DNA of 19,616 nucleotides from a virus (taxonomy: Duplodnaviria; Heunggongvirae; Uroviricota; Caudoviricetes), in the IMG/VR virus record IMGVR_UViG_2740892234_000002, one strand, 5' to 3'. Positions 3,554-13,973 of the stretch are shown here, piece by piece. The notes beneath the pieces are model-generated. The model was given only the letters and a program-made list of their open reading frames with translations, had not been told where the DNA came from and ran no database searches. Position 1 is the first letter of the stretch. Each line of letters begins with the position of its first letter. The translations under genes were made by a program, and so were the position numbers.

Positions 3554-6099
3554 CGTCCACCTCCGGAGAACAGACCACCATCGCGCATCTGTGCCTGAAT
3601 TTCATCACGGGCACCCTTGCGGGCCATGTCATACACGGCCTTCAGCATCTGTGGACCTGGCAGACCATTCGTACCGTCGTTCTGAATCACCACGTTGTTG
3701 TTCTGCTCAAATCTGATACCCTCTGAACGCCGCATTTGCGCCGGACTTCCGGTGCCACCGACATAACCACCGGTGGCATAGCCGCGCATCAGCCGGTAAA
3801 GATTTCCCACGCCAATCCGGCTGGTTGCCTCCTTCGTGAAGACAAATTCACCACGGTGAACAATCCCCGCTGGCTCATATTTGCCGCCGGTTCCCGTAAA
3901 TCCTCCGTTCGCAAAATGGAATTTCGCCGCAGCTGCCTGAATGGCTGTGCCGCCTGACGCTGATGCGCCGCCGCCAATGGCGCTGCCTATACTTCCGACA
4001 ATCCCCACCATTGCCTGCTTAAGCAGAATTTCTGTCATCATGGACAGCACGGAACGGGTGAAGCTGCGCCAGTTCTGCTCACTGCCGGTCAGCATCGCTG
4101 CCATATTCTGTGCAATACCATCAAAGGTCTGCGTGGCTGCACTTTTTACCTGCGACATACTGTCCGTGGCGCTCTCTTCCCACTCACTCCAGCCGGACTT
4201 CAGGCCTGCCATCCAGCTCCCGCGAAGCTGGTCTTCAGCCGCCCAGGTCTTTTTCTGCTCTGACATGACGTTATTCAGCGCCAGAGGATTATCGCCATAC
4301 TGTTCCTTCAGGCGCTGTTCCGTGGCTTCCCGTTCTGCCTGCCGGTCAGTCAGCCCCCGGCTTTTCGCATCAATAGCGGCCCGTTTTGCCCGTTGCTGCT
4401 GTGCGAATTTATCCGCCTGCTGCGCCAGCGCGTTCAGGCGCTCCTGATACGTAACCTTGTCGCCAAGTGCAGCCAACTGGCGTTTATACTCCAGCGTCTC
4501 ATTTTTATGCGCCAGCAGGGATTTCTCCTGTGCAGACAGCTGGCGACGTTGCGCCGCCTCCTCCAGTACCGCGAACTGACTCTCCGCCTTCCACAAATCC
4601 CGGCGCTGCTGGCTGATTTTCTCATTTGCTCCGGCATGCTTCTCCAGCGTCCGGAGTTCAGCCTGAAGCGTCAGCAGGGCAGCATGAGCACTGTCTTCCT
4701 GACGATCGCCCGCAGACACCTTCACGCCGGACTGTTTCGGCTTTTTCAGCGTCGCTTCATAGTCCTTTTTCGCCGCCGCCATCAGCGTGTTGTAATCTGC
4801 CTGCAGGATTTTCCCGTCTTTCAGTGCCTTATTCAGTTCTTCCTGACGGGCGGTATATTTCTCCAGCGGCGTCTGCAGGCGTTCGTAAGCCTTCTGCGCC
4901 TCTTCGGTGTATTTCAGCCGTGACGCTTCGGTATCGCTCTGCTGCTGCGCATTTTTGTCCTGTTGAGTCTGCTGCTCAGCCTTCTTTCGGGCGGCTTCAA
5001 GCGCAAGACGGGCCTTTTCACGATCATCCCAGTAACGCGCCCGCGCTTCATCGTTAACAAAATAATCATCCTTGCGCAGATTCCAGATGTCGTCTGCTTT
5101 CTTAAACGCAGCCTCTGCCTTAATCAGCATCTCCTGCGCGGTATCAGGACGACCAATATCCAGCACCGCATCCCACATGGATTTGAAGGCCCGCGCTGTC
5201 CTGTCTGCCCATGTCTCCAGCGTGCCCATGTTCTCTTTCAGGCGGCGGGTCTGGTCATCAAACCCTTTCGTTGCGGCCTCGTTCGCCGCCTGCAATGCCC
5301 CGGCTTCATCGCCGGAACGCTGCAACTGAGCAACATACGCAATCTGCTCCGCCGTCACGTTATGGAACTGGCGTGCCATCGCCGTCAGCCCCGACGTCGG
5401 GTCTGTGGTCAGCTTCCCGAAGGCTTCAGCGACCTTGTCCACCTCCACGCCGGATGCAGAGGAGAAACGCGCCACACTCTGGCTGATGGACGCAATCTGA
5501 GCCTCACCGCTTACCCCCGCCTTAACCAGTGCGCTGAGTGACTCGCTGGTCTGGTTAAACGTCAGCCCTGCCGCCTGCCCGGCTCTGGACAGGACCAGCA
5601 TACGATCTGCCGTCAGTCCCGCCTGATTGCCGGAAAGGACCAGCGTTTTGTTGAAATCGGACAGGGTTGAGTTGCCCTGATACCAGGCATACGCCAGCGC
5701 ACCGGTCGCCACCGCCAGCGAGGTGGCCCCCACCATCGGCAGGGTGATCGCACCGGCAAGCCCCCTGAACATGGGGATCATCCCGCCGAAGGAGTCCTTA
5801 ACCTGACCACCCTGTTGCAGCAGGATCAGCCACGGACTTTGCCCGCCTGCAAGCTGCGTGGCCACGTCGGTGAACTGTGCAGGCAGCATACGCATGGCGG
5901 CTTTATACTGCCCGACGGAAATCCCCGCTTTCTGTGCAGCCAGCGCCTGTCGGCTCAGTGACTGTTCAACGACTGCCGCTGTTTTTTTCGCATCACTTTC
6001 CGTACCGGAAAAATGACGCCTGACTCTGGCCATCTGCTCGTCAAATCTGGCCGCATCCAGACTCAAATCAACGACCAGATCGCCTACCGGTTCAGCCAT
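3550..6099 (-). CDS. H: Tail tape measure protein H (849 aa)
   Basis: ORF track; MAEPVGDLVVDLSLDAARFDEQMARVRRHF... with coiled-coil middle and Gly-rich C-terminus; lambda gpH is 853 aa. Confidence 0.95.
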   Translation of the reverse strand: MAEPVGDLVVDLSLDAARFDEQMARVRRHFSGTESDAKKTAAVVEQSLSRQALAAQKAGISVGQYKAAMRMLPAQFTDVATQLAGGQSPWLILLQQGGQVKDSFGGMIPMFRGLAGAITLPMVGATSLAVATGALAYAWYQGNSTLSDFNKTLVLSGNQAGLTADRMLVLSRAGQAAGLTFNQTSESLSALVKAGVSGEAQIASISQSVARFSSASGVEVDKVAEAFGKLTTDPTSGLTAMARQFHNVTAEQIAYVAQLQRSGDEAGALQAANEAATKGFDDQTRRLKENMGTLETWADRTARAFKSMWDAVLDIGRPDTAQEMLIKAEAAFKKADDIWNLRKDDYFVNDEARARYWDDREKARLALEAARKKAEQQTQQDKNAQQQSDTEASRLKYTEEAQKAYERLQTPLEKYTARQEELNKALKDGKILQADYNTLMAAAKKDYEATLKKPKQSGVKVSAGDRQEDSAHAALLTLQAELRTLEKHAGANEKISQQRRDLWKAESQFAVLEEAAQRRQLSAQEKSLLAHKNETLEYKRQLAALGDKVTYQERLNALAQQADKFAQQQRAKRAAIDAKSRGLTDRQAEREATEQRLKEQYGDNPLALNNVMSEQKKTWAAEDQLRGSWMAGLKSGWSEWEESATDSMSQVKSAATQTFDGIAQNMAAMLTGSEQNWRSFTRSVLSMMTEILLKQAMVGIVGSIGSAIGGGASASGGTAIQAAAAKFHFANGGFTGTGGKYEPAGIVHRGEFVFTKEATSRIGVGNLYRLMRGYATGGYVGGTGSPAQMRRSEGIRFEQNNNVVIQNDGTNGLPGPQMLKAVYDMARKGARDEIQAQMRDGGLFSGGGR

Positions 6100-6526
6100 A
6101 CCGGACTCCTCCTGCGATCCCTTCTGATACTGTCATCAGCATTACATCATCCTCCGTCATGTCCGCCACATCCGGGGAAGTAGGGATAACTTCATTCCCG
6201 TCCGGGCCAAAGCGGACACCTCCGGCAAGCCCTGCCGCTTTCTGCATCAGCACATCATCTTCAGGCTCTTCGTCAGCCTCGCGCCGGTTCAGCAGACTGA
6301 AATCCAGCGGATGCATATCCGGATCGCTGAAAAACAGGCTGAGCACGGTGTACGTCAGCCCGGAAAAGTGCATATCCAGCAGAACATCATGAAAATAATG
6401 GGTACTGTAAAAGCGGTGCCAGTCGGCATACTCCGTGGATGACATCCCGGCAAGCATGGCGCGCCAGTCAGGTCGCCCCATCTCACGCGCCAGTTTCAGG
6501 GCAAAACTCAGCTCACCGTCGAACAC
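6092..6526 (-). CDS. T: Tail assembly chaperone T reading frame, expected to be made only as a G-T fusion by -1 frameshift
   Basis: ORF track 6092..6526 (…FDGELSFALKLAREMGRPDWRAMLAGMS…) in the -1 frame relative to the G 3' end; the leading M is an ORF-finder start, not a real initiator. Confidence 0.85.
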   Translation of the reverse strand: MFDGELSFALKLAREMGRPDWRAMLAGMSSTEYADWHRFYSTHYFHDVLLDMHFSGLTYTVLSLFFSDPDMHPLDFSLLNRREADEEPEDDVLMQKAAGLAGGVRFGPDGNEVIPTSPDVADMTEDDVMLMTVSEGIAGGVRYG

Positions 6527-6930
6527 TTTCCCGCAGAAACAGGCTCTGCAGGCCCGGCGTCCTCTGCCTGTTCAGGGGCATCATTCACCACAAACTCATA
6601 CATACCGGACAGCCGGTACACCACGTTTTCAGCATGAGAAATTGCCTCTGTAGGCCAGGTGGTAAGCACTTCCTGCTCAATCTGTTTAACGGCTTCATTC
6701 ATGGAAGGCAGCTTTGTCTTCTGCGGATGGTTATGCCACAGGGACATCGCTACCACAAAAGCACCGGTTCTGATGGCGTCTTCCACAGTAAACTTCCGGT
6801 TGCTGTCTGACTCCGCCTGTTCTGCCTGCCGTTTCATCAGGGCGAGATGCTCAATACGCTGCAGGGCTGACAGTTCAGAAAGCGTGACGGTCACGCCGTT
6901 ATGTTCAAATGATTCGGTTTTCAGGAACAT
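6508..6930 (-). CDS. G: Tail assembly chaperone G (140 aa)
   Basis: ORF track; MFLKTESFEHNGVTVTLSELSALQRIEHLALMKRQ... matches lambda gpG. Confidence 0.93.
   Translation of the reverse strand: MFLKTESFEHNGVTVTLSELSALQRIEHLALMKRQAEQAESDSNRKFTVEDAIRTGAFVVAMSLWHNHPQKTKLPSMNEAVKQIEQEVLTTWPTEAISHAENVVYRLSGMYEFVVNDAPEQAEDAGPAEPVSAGKCSTVS
6520..6535 (-). other. Programmed -1 ribosomal frameshift slippery heptamer GGGAAAG (G to G-T fusion)
   Basis: Minus strand reads ...tct gcg GGA AAG tgt tcg acg gtg agc tga in the G frame; a -1 slip gives GKVFDGELSF..., the T ORF. Coordinates +/-3 bp. Confidence 0.8.
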
Positions 6931-9415: not shown

Positions 9416-10444
9416 TTATTTCACCTGCACCACCACAAACTCATCCGGATCCGGCAGCACCATCAGCGGTGCGGACTGCGTCATGGTAAATTCACGGGCC
9501 GGATCGCCCACGGTCAGCCAGTGTTTCGGGTAACGGGAAGAAGCCACCACACCTTCGGACAACGCCTGCGCATCCTGAATGGCACCGTAACAACGGATCC
9601 CATCTGCAGCCGTATTTCCCAGGACCAGCGTGCCCTCCGGCAGATAACGTTTTTCGGTACCGTCCTCTGCCACATAAGACGTTTTCGCCACCACAATGGC
9701 CAGATCGCCGTAATACCCTTTGAAAGACACCACCGCCCCCAGGTCTTTCACTGCCGTTTCGAGTTGTGAATTTGAGCCGCGACGGGTATCCAGTTTTTCG
9801 CGGAACAGCTTAAAACCATTCAGCAGACGCCAGACAGTACCGTCCATAATGGCAATATTCACAAGACCGCTGGCCTGATCGCAGTAGAGGTCAATATCAT
9901 GCGTCGGATCAAACGTATCACGGTCCTGCTCAGACCATTTTTTACCGTCGGCCTGCTCAATGTTATTTCCTTCAGAGCGTCCAAAATCCACCTCGACAGT
10001 ATCAAACTGATCCCCTTCCATGGTGTATTTGCCATACAGCACGGCATTCACCGCCTGCATTTCTTCCACCTGGACAATGGCATGCTCTTCCTGTTTGAGG
10101 TTATCGGTGATGATACGCAGACGACGGTAGGCCGGGTCGTTCAGTTGAGCCGGATCTTCACCGGGAAGACGCTCAACCGCCTGCTGGTAATTAAATTCGT
10201 GTTTCGGCTTGACGTAGCCCGGACGTAACACGCGGGTTTCACCACCGCGATGACGCAGCACTTTTCCTTCAACAACCGGGGAGACATAGGCCGCCACCGG
10301 CGTTTTTCCGGTAATTTTGTCCAGCATCACCTCTTCGGTATGGAAATTCACCGTACGGCGGAAAAACAGCTCCAGAAACAGCGCACGAAATTTCACTTTT
10401 TGTTCGGTATAACCGAGTAACTGGCGGGTCGTAAACAATCCCAT
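9416..10444 (-). CDS. E: Major capsid protein E (342 aa)
   Basis: ORF track; ...SPVVEGKVLRHRGGETRVLRPGYVKPKHEFNYQ...KLDTRRGSNSQLETAVKDLG...TVGDPAREFTMTQSAPLMVLPDPDEFVVVQVK, lambda gpE-like but clearly diverged. Confidence 0.92.
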   Translation of the reverse strand: MGLFTTRQLLGYTEQKVKFRALFLELFFRRTVNFHTEEVMLDKITGKTPVAAYVSPVVEGKVLRHRGGETRVLRPGYVKPKHEFNYQQAVERLPGEDPAQLNDPAYRRLRIITDNLKQEEHAIVQVEEMQAVNAVLYGKYTMEGDQFDTVEVDFGRSEGNNIEQADGKKWSEQDRDTFDPTHDIDLYCDQASGLVNIAIMDGTVWRLLNGFKLFREKLDTRRGSNSQLETAVKDLGAVVSFKGYYGDLAIVVAKTSYVAEDGTEKRYLPEGTLVLGNTAADGIRCYGAIQDAQALSEGVVASSRYPKHWLTVGDPAREFTMTQSAPLMVLPDPDEFVVVQVK

Positions 10445-10501: not shown

Positions 10502-10849
10502 TTACGGCAGCGCCGCGTGACTCAGGGCACTGCCGGCAAAGGCATTTGCCTTTTTGTGTTCATCCACACTGTCAGGCCAGCGGATTGCCTCCGTCGCAAA
10601 GGTCCCCGACTTGTAATAGGTCAGTACCGTCTCTGTGCCTTCAAGCGGCAGTACCAGTATGCCAACCGCACTACCGGCTTTCTGTCCGTCCCAGACCACC
10701 AGTTTCCCGCTGGCTTCATCCAGCATCAGGGGCGTCAGTGCCGGTGTTGCCGAGGAAATCCCGCTGCTGCCTGTGGCGGTATGAGCCGGATCATTACCGG
10801 CAAAAATACGTACTTCCGCACGCTGTTCAGTGATGGTTTTCGTTACCAT
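10502..10849 (-). CDS. D: Head decoration protein D (115 aa)
   Basis: ORF track; ...NDPAHTATGSSG...TPLMLDEASGKLVVWDG...YKSGTF...AFAG... lambda gpD-like; GGAGG ribosome-binding site ~10 nt upstream of the ATG. Confidence 0.9.
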   Translation of the reverse strand: MVTKTITEQRAEVRIFAGNDPAHTATGSSGISSATPALTPLMLDEASGKLVVWDGQKAGSAVGILVLPLEGTETVLTYYKSGTFATEAIRWPDSVDEHKKANAFAGSALSHAALP

Positions 10850-10885: not shown

Positions 10886-12391
10886 TCATGGCATGGCCAT
10901 GAGCATTTTCACGTCCGCATCACCGTCTGCTGACGTCTGTGGCACGCCACCCTGTACCGCTGCCGGTGAATGGTTCGCCATGATGCGTTCAAACAGGGCG
11001 GTTGTGGATGCAGAGACCGGTTCTGCCTTACCTGATCCCGCAGCCAGCACAGCCCGGGCGCTCTCCACAGTCATTCCCGGGCAGGCAGCCAGCTGTTCAG
11101 CCTGCGCCTCAGCCCCTTTTGCCTCATCCAGTGCCATGATCTGATCACGGAGTGAGGGTCCGGCATCCGCCTGCGGTGAAGCAGCCAGGATCGGGCGGGC
11201 TTTTTCCACCGTCATCTCCGGCATCGCCGCCAGCGTTGCCGCCAGTTGTTCACGACCGTTCGCTTCTTCACACGCCATAATGCGATCGGCTTCACTCTGC
11301 GTGGATGCCACCGGCTGCTGCGGTGCCGCCGCGGCCAGAATCGCCCGGGCCTGTTCAACGCTCATGCCCTGTTGTCCTGCCAGCATCGTGGCAAGCTGTT
11401 CACGTCCTTTCGCTTCCTGGCATGTCAGGATCCCCATCACTCGCTGGTTCTCCTGCGCGGCGGCTTCCGTTGCAGTTAATTGCGGCATAGTGCCTCCTCT
11501 GACATTACTGTTCAGCGCCGTGGCCATCACACTGATGGCATCCGACGCATTGACTAATTCATCCGCCAGCCCGGCATCAATGCCGGACTGACCTTCAAAA
11601 ACGGCGGCCTCTGTTCCCGTGACGGCATCAACAGACAGACCGGTAAACATGGCCACTTTTTCGGCAAACATCCGGCGCGCCGCATCAATGCGCTGCTGCA
11701 TGTCCTGGCGAACCTCTGCCGGTAAGGCTTCAAACTGATTGCCATCCACCTTGTGCGCCCCTGAGTAAATCAGCGTGATATCCACACCGGCCTGCGCCAG
11801 ATGACCGGCATAGCTGACATGGCTCATCATCACGCCAATGGAGCCGATACGGGATGTCTGGGTAACCAGCCGTCGGGAGCAGGCCGACGCCAGCAGCATG
11901 GCTGCAGAACAGGCCGTGTCATTGCACAGTGCCCAGACCGGCTTCTGCTGACGGAGGCGGTAAATCATGTCAGCGCAGTCAAACGCGCCGGCGGCCTGCC
12001 CGCCCGGACTGTCAATGTCCAGCAGTACGCCCCGCACCTGGCTATCCGCCATTGCCTGCTGAAGACAGGCGACAATGCCGTCATAGCCTGTCATTCCGGA
12101 AAATGGCCGCATACCCCCCAGCCGGTGCACCAGCGTGCCGGTCACCGGCAGTACAGCAATACCGTTCACCACCCGGTAAACACGGGCCGGTCGTTTACCT
12201 CCGGCCATGTACTCGTCCGTTTCAGCCAGCATTCCGGGAGCATCAAGCTGTACCTGCTGCTGTGGTACCGAAAGACTTGCTGCCCCCATCTCGCGCCCGA
12301 GCGCGCAAAAGAAAACCCGCGCATAGGCGGGCTCCAGAAGCAGCGGTTCATTGAATGCCGCGGCAATAATGTGTGAAAGATTACGTCTCAC
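10886..12391 (-). CDS. C: Head maturation protease C (S49/ClpP-like) with in-frame C-terminal scaffold (Nu3) domain; 501 aa
   Basis: ORF track; ...AFNEPLLLEPAYARVFFCAL...VWALCNDTACSAAMLLASACSRRLVTQTSRIGSIGVMM... matches lambda gpC. Start codon reads as GTG in my transcription, overlapping the B 3' end. About 60 aa longer than lambda C because of extra C-terminal repeats. Confidence 0.9.
   Translation of the reverse strand: MRRNLSHIIAAAFNEPLLLEPAYARVFFCALGREMGAASLSVPQQQVQLDAPGMLAETDEYMAGGKRPARVYRVVNGIAVLPVTGTLVHRLGGMRPFSGMTGYDGIVACLQQAMADSQVRGVLLDIDSPGGQAAGAFDCADMIYRLRQQKPVWALCNDTACSAAMLLASACSRRLVTQTSRIGSIGVMMSHVSYAGHLAQAGVDITLIYSGAHKVDGNQFEALPAEVRQDMQQRIDAARRMFAEKVAMFTGLSVDAVTGTEAAVFEGQSGIDAGLADELVNASDAISVMATALNSNVRGGTMPQLTATEAAAQENQRVMGILTCQEAKGREQLATMLAGQQGMSVEQARAILAAAAPQQPVASTQSEADRIMACEEANGREQLAATLAAMPEMTVEKARPILAASPQADAGPSLRDQIMALDEAKGAEAQAEQLAACPGMTVESARAVLAAGSGKAEPVSASTTALFERIMANHSPAAVQGGVPQTSADGDADVKMLMAMP
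11020..11470 (-). repeat. Three tandem, diverged in-frame repeats (~111-135 bp each; ~37-45 aa) within the scaffold (Nu3-equivalent) part of C
   Basis: Protein units ILTCQEAKGREQLATMLAGQQGMSVEQARAILAAAAPQ / IMACEEANGREQLAATLAAMPEMTVEKARPILAASPQ / IMALDEAKGAEAQAEQLAACPGMTVESARAVLAAGSG; matching periodicity visible in the DNA. Boundaries approximate. Confidence 0.8.
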
Positions 12392-13973
12392 GGGGTGTTG
12401 TCTCCTCTTCCGGCCTGCGACTCTCCGCTATCTGCTGCTGATACGCCTGCGCTATCCACACCGGACGTGAGAGTCCGGCTTTTTGCCGCTCTGCAGATTC
12501 CCTGACCTGCTGGCGGAAAATGTCCTGATAATCCTCGCCCATCAGCGCCAGCTCTTTCTCATACGTGCTCAGTCCGGCCTCAATGCGCATCACCGATTCC
12601 TGAACCTCCTTGAGCCCGTCAATGGCCATTCTTCCGGCACCAATCCACTCTGCCCGTGACCAGGCTGATCGCGCCTGATAAAAATCAAAACGCGCCCGTG
12701 GCGGACGGATAATCCCCCGAAGAAGTGCCTCTTCCAGCCAGCAGGAAAACATCTGCGTGGCCAGCCGGGCCGCAATAAATTTTCGCCGCCCCATAAAATA
12801 GCGCCACGACTCATTGGCAGAGGCCCTGGCACTTGAATAACTGACCTTCGAGTAATCACGGGACAACTGTTCGTAGGAAACGCCAAGACCGGCGGCGATA
12901 TACCGCAGCAGCGCCTGTTCAAGCGCCGAAAATCCATTGTCTGAATCCTGCGCAGTCTGTAGTTTCAGATCATCACCAGGGAAAAGGTGCGGAATTTTGA
13001 CTCCGCCCAGCGTCACGCTATTCGTGTCATACCAGCTGGAGAACTTCTCCAGAATATTAATAAGCGGATTATCCTTCTGCTCCTGTGGCGCGCCGGCGAT
13101 ATATTCAAAGGCCTTTTCGGTATCAAGTTCACTTTCAATCGTCGCTGCATACATGGCTTTCACAATGGCCGACTGAAGCTGTGTTGCCTGCAGGGAATCC
13201 AGCATCTTCAGCCGTTCCATGACGCTGTAAAACTGATTAGCCCCACGGGTCTGCCCGTCCTCCACCGGCTCGAAAATATGCAGCATGGCCGGACGCCCGG
13301 TGGGAAGTTCACGCGGGATCCGTTCCCATCGTCCACTCCCGGAGAACGGAAAATCATCCTCACAGATATGGTACGCAACGGCACGGCCATATCGATCGAC
13401 CTCCACCCCGGCCCGCAGAAAACGGTTCCCCATACCGTGTCCTGGCGTGTCCACCCGTTTCGGACTCACGGCTTTAAAACGCGTACGGAATAACTGCGTG
13501 GTTTCCGTATCCCAGACCGGCTGCACAAAGATTTCGCCGTTAAACGCATGAACGCCCACACCTTCACGGATAAATTCCGTGAACGTGCGTTTTCCTTCCA
13601 CGTCGATCTCGCCAGACATCCCTTCGGCGTATTCCGACCAGGCCGCCTCCACCTCATCGACAAAGCTTTTTGCTGCGGTCTCCCGCATCCCCAGCCAGCG
13701 CCAGTTCGGACGGTAGCTGATAAGAAACATATGCCCGACAATGTGATCCTTATGCAGTGCCACCGCATTGGCCGCTATTCCGTTATTGCGCACCAGATCA
13801 TCTGCCCGGGCATTCCCCAGACGCAACGCGGGCAGCAGGGCCGCATCGGCACTCTGCGCCGGTGGCAACCACTCCGCCATTTGCCCGCCAAATCCTGCGC
13901 CGCCCCCGTTGTAGCTGAGACTCTCACGAAGCGGAACGCCGTTCACATCAATCAGGACAGGCGTTCGTTTCAT
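12381..13973 (-). CDS. B: Portal protein B (530 aa)
   Basis: ORF track; ...GNARADDLVRNNGIAANAVALHKDHIVG...FEPVEDGQTRGANQFYSVMERLKMLDSLQATQLQSAIVKAMYAATIESELD... lambda gpB-like; the W stop overlaps the B start (ATGA). Confidence 0.95.
   Translation of the reverse strand: MKRTPVLIDVNGVPLRESLSYNGGGAGFGGQMAEWLPPAQSADAALLPALRLGNARADDLVRNNGIAANAVALHKDHIVGHMFLISYRPNWRWLGMRETAAKSFVDEVEAAWSEYAEGMSGEIDVEGKRTFTEFIREGVGVHAFNGEIFVQPVWDTETTQLFRTRFKAVSPKRVDTPGHGMGNRFLRAGVEVDRYGRAVAYHICEDDFPFSGSGRWERIPRELPTGRPAMLHIFEPVEDGQTRGANQFYSVMERLKMLDSLQATQLQSAIVKAMYAATIESELDTEKAFEYIAGAPQEQKDNPLINILEKFSSWYDTNSVTLGGVKIPHLFPGDDLKLQTAQDSDNGFSALEQALLRYIAAGLGVSYEQLSRDYSKVSYSSARASANESWRYFMGRRKFIAARLATQMFSCWLEEALLRGIIRPPRARFDFYQARSAWSRAEWIGAGRMAIDGLKEVQESVMRIEAGLSTYEKELALMGEDYQDIFRQQVRESAERQKAGLSRPVWIAQAYQQQIAESRRPEEETTPRET

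Follow-up and report, generated by a model that had tools for sequence, protein, structure and literature searches.

The DNA analyzed here, referred to as the window, is the 19,616-nt Caudoviricetes record IMGVR_UViG_2740892234_000002 of IMG/VR. Its minus strand carries an equivalent of phage 21 gene 5, a homolog of lambda C, which encodes an S49 prohead protease fused to a scaffold region (table 1). As proposed in a preliminary description made from the sequence alone, the C-terminal part of this protein harbors a tandem in-frame triplication. Local alignments of the three units to one another gave BLOSUM62 scores of 87–101, with identities ranging from 21/44 to 23/37, versus 25–26 ± 5 for shuffled sequences (z = 11.9–15.5; n = 2000, 0/2000 shuffles reaching the observed score). 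A hidden Markov model (HMM) of the unit identified exactly three copies in the window protein, each with an independent E-value of about 1e-27 and a score of 83–86 bits. Together, they span positions 11027–11455, within the 11020–11470 interval first reported. The protein exceeds lambda C by about 60 aa, as had been noted (501 versus 439 aa, a net gain of 62 aa), and the single unit attributed to lambda was indeed the only one detected there by the unit HMM (aa 357–400).

Table 1. Coordinates in the window of the gene for protease and scaffold, with its parts, in the order of translation.
Feature	Position	Strand	Basis or remark
Gene 5 equivalent (lambda C homolog): S49 prohead protease fused to scaffold region	10886..12391	-	ORF (open reading frame) list; GTG start, 501 aa
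Peptidase S49 (SppA-like) domain, aa 146-293	11513..11956	-	Pfam PF01343, E 7e-35
Shine-Dalgarno GGAGG of the nested scaffold gene	11493..11497	-	4 nt upstream of ATG; read from the sequence
Nested in-frame gene 6 equivalent (Nu3-type scaffold)	10886..11488	-	200 aa, from Met302 of gp5
Unit 1 (Tri1 box), aa 313-358, QENQRVMGILTCQEAKGREQLATMLAGQQGMSVEQARAILAAAAPQ	11318..11455	-	Unit HMM, 82.9 bits
Linker 1 (QPVASTQ)	11297..11317	-	Low pLDDT (predicted local distance difference test) at gp6 residues 58-62
Unit 2 (Tri box 2), aa 366-407, SEADRIMACEEANGREQLAATLAAMPEMTVEKARPILAASPQ	11171..11296	-	Unit HMM, 86.1 bits
Linker 2 (ADAGP)	11156..11170	-	Between HMM envelopes; pLDDT dip in the whole-gp6 model
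Unit 3 (Tri3 box), aa 413-455, SLRDQIMALDEAKGAEAQAEQLAACPGMTVESARAVLAAGSGK	11027..11155	-	Unit HMM, 84.4 bits
C-terminal tail, aa 456-501: predicted helix ALFERIMANHSP, then disordered acidic end	10889..11026	-	AlphaFold2

The repeat is visible in the protein only. Tandem Repeats Finder detected no repeat in the DNA because the copies are too diverged: they are only 52–65% identical in DNA, with saturated synonymous sites, and seeds of only 12–15 nt recur at a spacing of 141–156 nt. Comparison of the whole protein with itself by BLASTP returned the diagonal only, and the unit-by-unit alignments and shuffles described above were used instead. A charged motif, EAKGRE, is nearly invariant among units and phages. 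Unit 3, the most diverged of the three, reads EAKGAE in the phage-21 type (aa 429–433; 11093–11107, minus strand), and all other units examined carry EAKGRE or a variant containing the arginine. The tail starts with ALFERIMAN (aa 464–472; 10975–11001, minus strand), which resembles helix 1 of the unit (EADRIMAC) and has the lambda analog ALDRLMQ. A search for repeats in the DNA also marks this segment, at 10977–10991, and at the protein level the likeness between ALFERIMAN and unit helix 1 is not significant (z < 0). The start of the tail might at most be what is left of a fourth unit.

The protease assignment, likewise made in the preliminary description, is borne out by the match of the 501-aa protein to PF01343 (120.7 bits for a cut-off of 24.9) and to PHROG 53, "head maturation protease" (E 3e-228). 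By comparison with sequences in the PDB, the SppA structure 3rst matches aa 77–290 at E 5e-16. The serine of CSA and the lysine of HKVDGN, which we take to be the catalytic residues, align with lambda C.

The repeat almost certainly corresponds, judging from the alignments, to three elements annotated in phage 21. Megablast revealed 98.7% identity with phage 21 (M81255.1 and OL657228.1) across the full 1506 nt, and at the protein level, 9 of the 501 positions distinguish the window from phage 21 gp5. In M81255.1, gene 6 carries three repeat_region features named "Tri1 box," "Tri box," and "Tri3 box," all three described as "function unknown; putative." Transferred to the window, they lie at 11318–11421, 11171–11281, and 11027–11140, respectively, and their 3' ends coincide exactly with the ends of the units found here. 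Record M81255.1 reportedly stems from the work of Smith and Feiss, who analyzed the head gene sequences of phage 21 in the early 1990s. Literature searches on the Tri boxes returned no paper in the literature covered. On the unit region, no curated model scored above threshold in Pfam (aa 313–455) or NCBIfam (gp6), and only the uncurated PHROG clusters 53, 1999, 8399, 8940, and 17040 matched.

The full-length gene is present at 95–98.7% identity in 19 phage records. The preliminary description further suggested that the number of copies might influence procapsid assembly. The phages with three units have genomes of 42.9–54.4 kb, the ordinary lambda size, and capsid proteins of 341–342 aa. At a coverage of at least 80%, the 603 nt encoding the scaffold were found in 1864 of 5426 complete Escherichia coli genomes, and a single genome may hold as many as five copies. 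The preliminary description was therefore right in rejecting an assembly artifact. The anatomy it proposed holds on every point. Its interpretation is otherwise only partly supported: the same three units, a finding it had named as contrary to its reading, were found in phage 21, in Gifsy-1, and in a distant homolog, P0092. The triplication is an already known trait of a whole phage lineage, old, fixed, and described, and is not a change in copy number specific to the window sequence. The sole 100% match to the 603-nt part lies in a degraded prophage of E. coli O145 RM9872 (NZ_CP028379.1, 850687–870289) that has its lysis genes broken by IS3 elements, lacks its tail genes, and carries nleH, cif, and espJ, which encode type III effectors. 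Evidently, the head module persists in defective prophages.

The units lie within a nested reading frame, in agreement with their proposed placement in the Nu3-equivalent part of the protein. The gene 6 ATG (11486–11488, Met302 of gp5) follows GGAGG by 4 nt, and an internal scaffold start or ribosome-binding site is annotated in three records, including M81255.1 and OL657228.1, the phage 21 records labeling the nested coding sequence (CDS) "gp6" or "scaffolding protein." GGAGG and the methionine are kept in six phages (Met302 in Gifsy-1, Met309 in lambda, and Met311 in phi80 and N15), and the similar AAGGAG precedes the scaffold start of a four-unit variant described below. By analogy with lambda C and Nu3, we infer that a separate 200-aa scaffold is expressed from Met302. 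It would consist of a 10–11 aa leader, three modules of 42–46 aa, linkers of 5–7 aa, and a 46-aa tail. The scaffold length counted from the conserved methionine rises with the number of units: 131–137 aa with one (lambda, phi80, and N15), 197–200 aa with three (Gifsy-1 and phage 21 or the window), and 236 aa with four. In RefSeq, the lambda nu3 CDS (NC_001416, 5132–5737) begins at Met239 of C, with no good Shine–Dalgarno sequence upstream. It is lambda Met309, preceded by GGAGG, that is the counterpart of the annotated gene 6 starts of phage 21 and N15. Its product would be 131 aa long, about 13.4 kDa, which would agree with the size of the purified lambda scaffold, and the RefSeq annotation of the nu3 start may be outdated. 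Two TTGYN6TTGY patterns annotated as "CII binding sites" lie antisense within the scaffold gene, at 11236–11249 and 11470–11483 (plus strand), and one of these two, TTGCAGTTAATTGC, is located just inside gene 6, 3 nt downstream of its ATG. We did not retain this annotation, as the frequency of the pattern is at chance level (4 occurrences in the window for 3.6 expected).

The surrounding late operon is entirely on the minus strand, with genes for the portal (12381–13973), the protease/scaffold, the decoration protein (10502–10849, 115 aa), and the major capsid protein (9416–10444, 342 aa). This order is that of phage 21 in M81255.1. Elsewhere in the window, a slippery heptamer, GGGAAAG (6526–6532, minus strand), lies exactly where the tail-chaperone ORFs 6508–6930 and 6092–6526 overlap, and corresponds to the conserved −1 frameshift site of lambda G/GT.

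We surveyed the distribution of the unit by searching its profile against 1.84 billion representative proteins (E ≤ 1e-3) and by scanning annotated phage records; a first homolog search had returned mostly gene fragments. The profile matched 447 representative proteins. Among the best 150 of these, 141 carry one unit, 6 carry two, and 3 carry three; 54 of the 55 full-length proteins (at least 380 aa) in this subset have one unit and the last, P0092, has three and represents a lineage more than 50% diverged. The unit HMM detected a single unit in lambda, phi80, N15, and Aeromonas phage PhAER-1 and three in Gifsy-1. Phage S49 proteases usually carry the unit once, as their C-terminal module, and three copies are a minority state. 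The comparison of repeat number over related prophages, suggested at the outset, revealed one, three, and four units. The four-unit form (P0027) comes from an E. coli draft assembly (GCA_032727965.1, locus L009, 1–1043), where it occurs in a normal head module beside a phage-21-type capsid gene; among 5426 complete E. coli genomes, 104 contain it. In-frame deletions of part or all of unit 2 were observed in five proteins from draft assemblies: P0009, P0011, P0016, P0020, and P0021 (locus L011, 265–411). For the 57-nt deletion of P0011, the top matches in complete genomes are all undeleted. We did not count two-unit forms as established, as they were seen in draft assemblies only and the P0011 deletion was not confirmed in complete genomes. 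They may be collapses of short-read assemblies and not real two-unit alleles.

A neighbor-joining tree of the units, built on 45 columns without support values and only indicative, separates them by position. Unit 1 of every multiunit protein groups with the single units, with which it shares a 3-aa "MGI" insertion. In agreement, the alignment to lambda, also suggested at the outset, showed 29/48 identical positions, with unit 1 the closest, and unit 1 is, by these sequence comparisons, orthologous to the single lambda unit. Units 2 and 3 form position-specific groups spanning E. coli and Salmonella phages, units 2–4 of the four-unit form group together, and the two units of the distant protein P0130 pair with each other. 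According to these groupings, the triplication is old and the module was amplified independently at least three times. The clustering of units 2–4 suggests that the four-unit form arose by a separate and more recent amplification. The capsid proteins of the window, Gifsy-1, and the four-unit form are 82–88% identical to each other and 57–62% identical to those of lambda and phi80, which are themselves 89% identical. As judged from these identities, the number of units follows the capsid protein lineage, three being the state of the phage-21 type.

The AlphaFold2 model of the whole 200-aa gp6 displays one helix pattern repeated three times (mean pLDDT 68). Confidence is higher inside the units (pLDDT 73–83) than in the linkers and the tail, where a low-confidence helix is predicted at gp6 residues 161–172 and the remainder is below 50. 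The predicted template modeling score (pTM) of 0.28 corresponds to no fixed arrangement between units. Modeled alone from an alignment of 22 units, the unit is predicted with a pLDDT of 90.6 and a pTM of 0.70, with helices at residues 2–10, 19–26, and 33–42. In BFVD, a library of viral structures, this model best matches C-terminal regions of S49 proteases from other phages (TM-scores of 0.85–0.90 and 30–40% identity), namely Salmonella phage 37, Synechococcus virus S-ESS1, and an uncultured siphovirus. Searches of the PDB with the whole gp6 model by Foldseek gave noise only (E > 1), as this model is flexible and composed of several modules, and the unit profile matched no PDB sequence. These predictions make it quite likely that the units would fold independently, as three-helix modules strung together like beads.

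Between the window and Gifsy-1, dN/dS is 0.04 for unit 1, 0.07 for unit 2, and 0.20 for unit 3, compared with 0.11 for the S49 domain, 0.53 for the pooled linkers, and 0.47 for the tail. By these comparisons, all three units appear kept by purifying selection, unit 3 of the phage-21 type being the loosest. With its EAKGAE motif and the highest dN/dS of the three, unit 3 may be functionally relaxed or specialized.

Considered together, the locus is probably best explained as the protease/scaffold pair of a lambdoid prophage of the phage-21 type, with the Tri boxes as predicted interaction modules shared by the two proteins. In lambda, interactions of C with Nu3, of Nu3 with itself, and of Nu3 with E have been reported (PMC3224144). 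The sequence common to C and Nu3 is limited to the linker, the unit, and the tail, and the unit is the sole confidently folded part of it. Because of these reported interactions and of this restriction, there is about an even chance that the units are protein–protein interaction modules. Modules common to protease and scaffold would bring both together inside the procapsid, through self-association of the scaffold, contact with the inward-facing side of the major capsid protein, or both. Degradation of the scaffold by the S49 protease would come next, allowing DNA to enter. The scaffold of the phage-21 lineage would be trivalent, and that of lambda would present one module behind a long disordered linker. 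Several points weigh against this interpretation. The interacting part could be the tail instead of the unit. The confidence of AlphaFold2 on the whole scaffold is moderate, and the dN/dS values are rough as dS is saturated. One- and three-unit scaffolds pair with different capsid lineages (82–88% identity within and about 60% between), and co-adaptation is therefore inseparable from common descent. Finally, the conserved arginine has been lost from the phage-21 type of unit 3, and the three units may therefore not be equivalent.

The main rival to an interaction role is that of a spacer or volume filler, in which the two extra units merely stand in for disordered linker, adding length or mass with no specific binding. 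In all three three-unit lineages, 19 aa separate the protease domain from unit 1, versus 40–132 aa (median 59) in 28 one-unit proteins, and the 36-aa S/T/A-rich insert of lambda is missing from the window protein. Furthermore, the total length after the protease in one-unit proteins (126–285 aa, median 148) brackets that of three-unit proteins (205–211 aa). The extra units do partly replace disordered linker. Nevertheless, units 2 and 3 retain the conserved residues of unit 1, surface charges included, they evolve at about the rate of the protease domain or slower whereas the linkers evolve fast, and their position-specific clades persist in E. coli and Salmonella phages. We therefore regard a pure spacer as unlikely. 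The units might also be substrate modules that mainly supply sites recognized or cut by the S49 protease, extra copies hastening removal of the scaffold. The motif is conserved, and the lambda scaffold is degraded after assembly and its interaction with C has been reported (PMC3224144), but a folded helical bundle would be a poorer protease substrate than the linkers, and we give this explanation little credence. Even less probable are helix–hairpin–helix-like repeats touching DNA during packaging, as the corresponding Pfam model (PF00633) was rejected: it reached 13.1 bits for a cut-off of 24 (E 0.093), on unit 3 only. A DNA-level or artifactual origin (assembly expansion, antisense gene, or repeated CII-type sites), in favor of which OL657228.1 annotates its two antisense sites within gene 6 and several plus-strand ORFs of 61–103 aa overlap the region, is effectively refuted by the chance frequency of the CII-type pattern, the presence of three units in phage records and complete genomes alike, substitutions that fit selection on the minus-strand reading frame, and the low DNA identity of the units.

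With interaction modules as the preferred reading, a further and more speculative proposal, which we hold to be possible yet doubtful, is that the Tri box is an amplifiable docking module, a three-helix bundle by which S49 protease and scaffold proteins would attach to one another or to the capsid shell, and that lineages tune the valency of their scaffold (1, 3, or 4 units) in exchange for the length of disordered linker. If so, natural scaffolds with one, three, and four units, associated with capsid proteins 82–88% identical, would constitute a ready series for work on valency, procapsid nucleation, and fidelity. The repeat itself is a rediscovery: its annotation in phage 21 dates back some thirty years, and roughly one complete E. 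coli genome in three contains it. What our analysis adds is modest: a concrete picture of predicted autonomous modules under selection, single in most phage S49 protease/scaffolds and numbering three or four in the capsid lineage of phage 21. This picture could guide work on how lambda-type scaffolds engage the capsid.

Small helical C-terminal scaffold regions occur in P22 gp8, phi29 gp7, and P2 gpO, and offer in principle a coat-binding analogy. In P2 gpO, the scaffold is fused to a protease (PMC8508860). No match in sequence or fold was established between these three proteins and the unit, and they are regarded here as analogs rather than as members of its family. The tandem three-helix-bundle domains of staphylococcal protein A were also named among the comparison systems. 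Within the family, lambda C is 54% identical to the window protein over the alignable part, and its single unit is homologous to the window units. The two systems share the nested scaffold preceded by GGAGG, the type of tail, and the order of the head genes. Conversely, the internal methionine is 47 aa from the first unit in lambda, including the 36-aa insert without counterpart in the window protein, versus a leader of 10–11 aa in the window; the scaffold is 131 aa long versus 200 aa, and the capsid proteins are 62% identical. The four-unit E. coli variant belongs to the same protease/scaffold family, with a capsid protein 84% identical to that of the window, and differs by its fourth unit and by the clustering of units 2–4. 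In Gifsy-1, the gpC homolog STM2605 carries three units at the same positions, respectively, 78%, 79%, and 60% identical to window units 1–3, and the capsid protein is 88% identical. Gifsy-1 differs by its host genus, Salmonella, by a unit 3 that keeps EAKGRE, and by a tail only 28% identical. The closest relative is phage 21, in which gp5 and gp6 have the same length, internal start, ribosome-binding site, and three repeat regions as in the window, with 492 of 501 residues in common; only one of the nine substitutions, V373A, falls within a unit, and the two systems show no structural difference.
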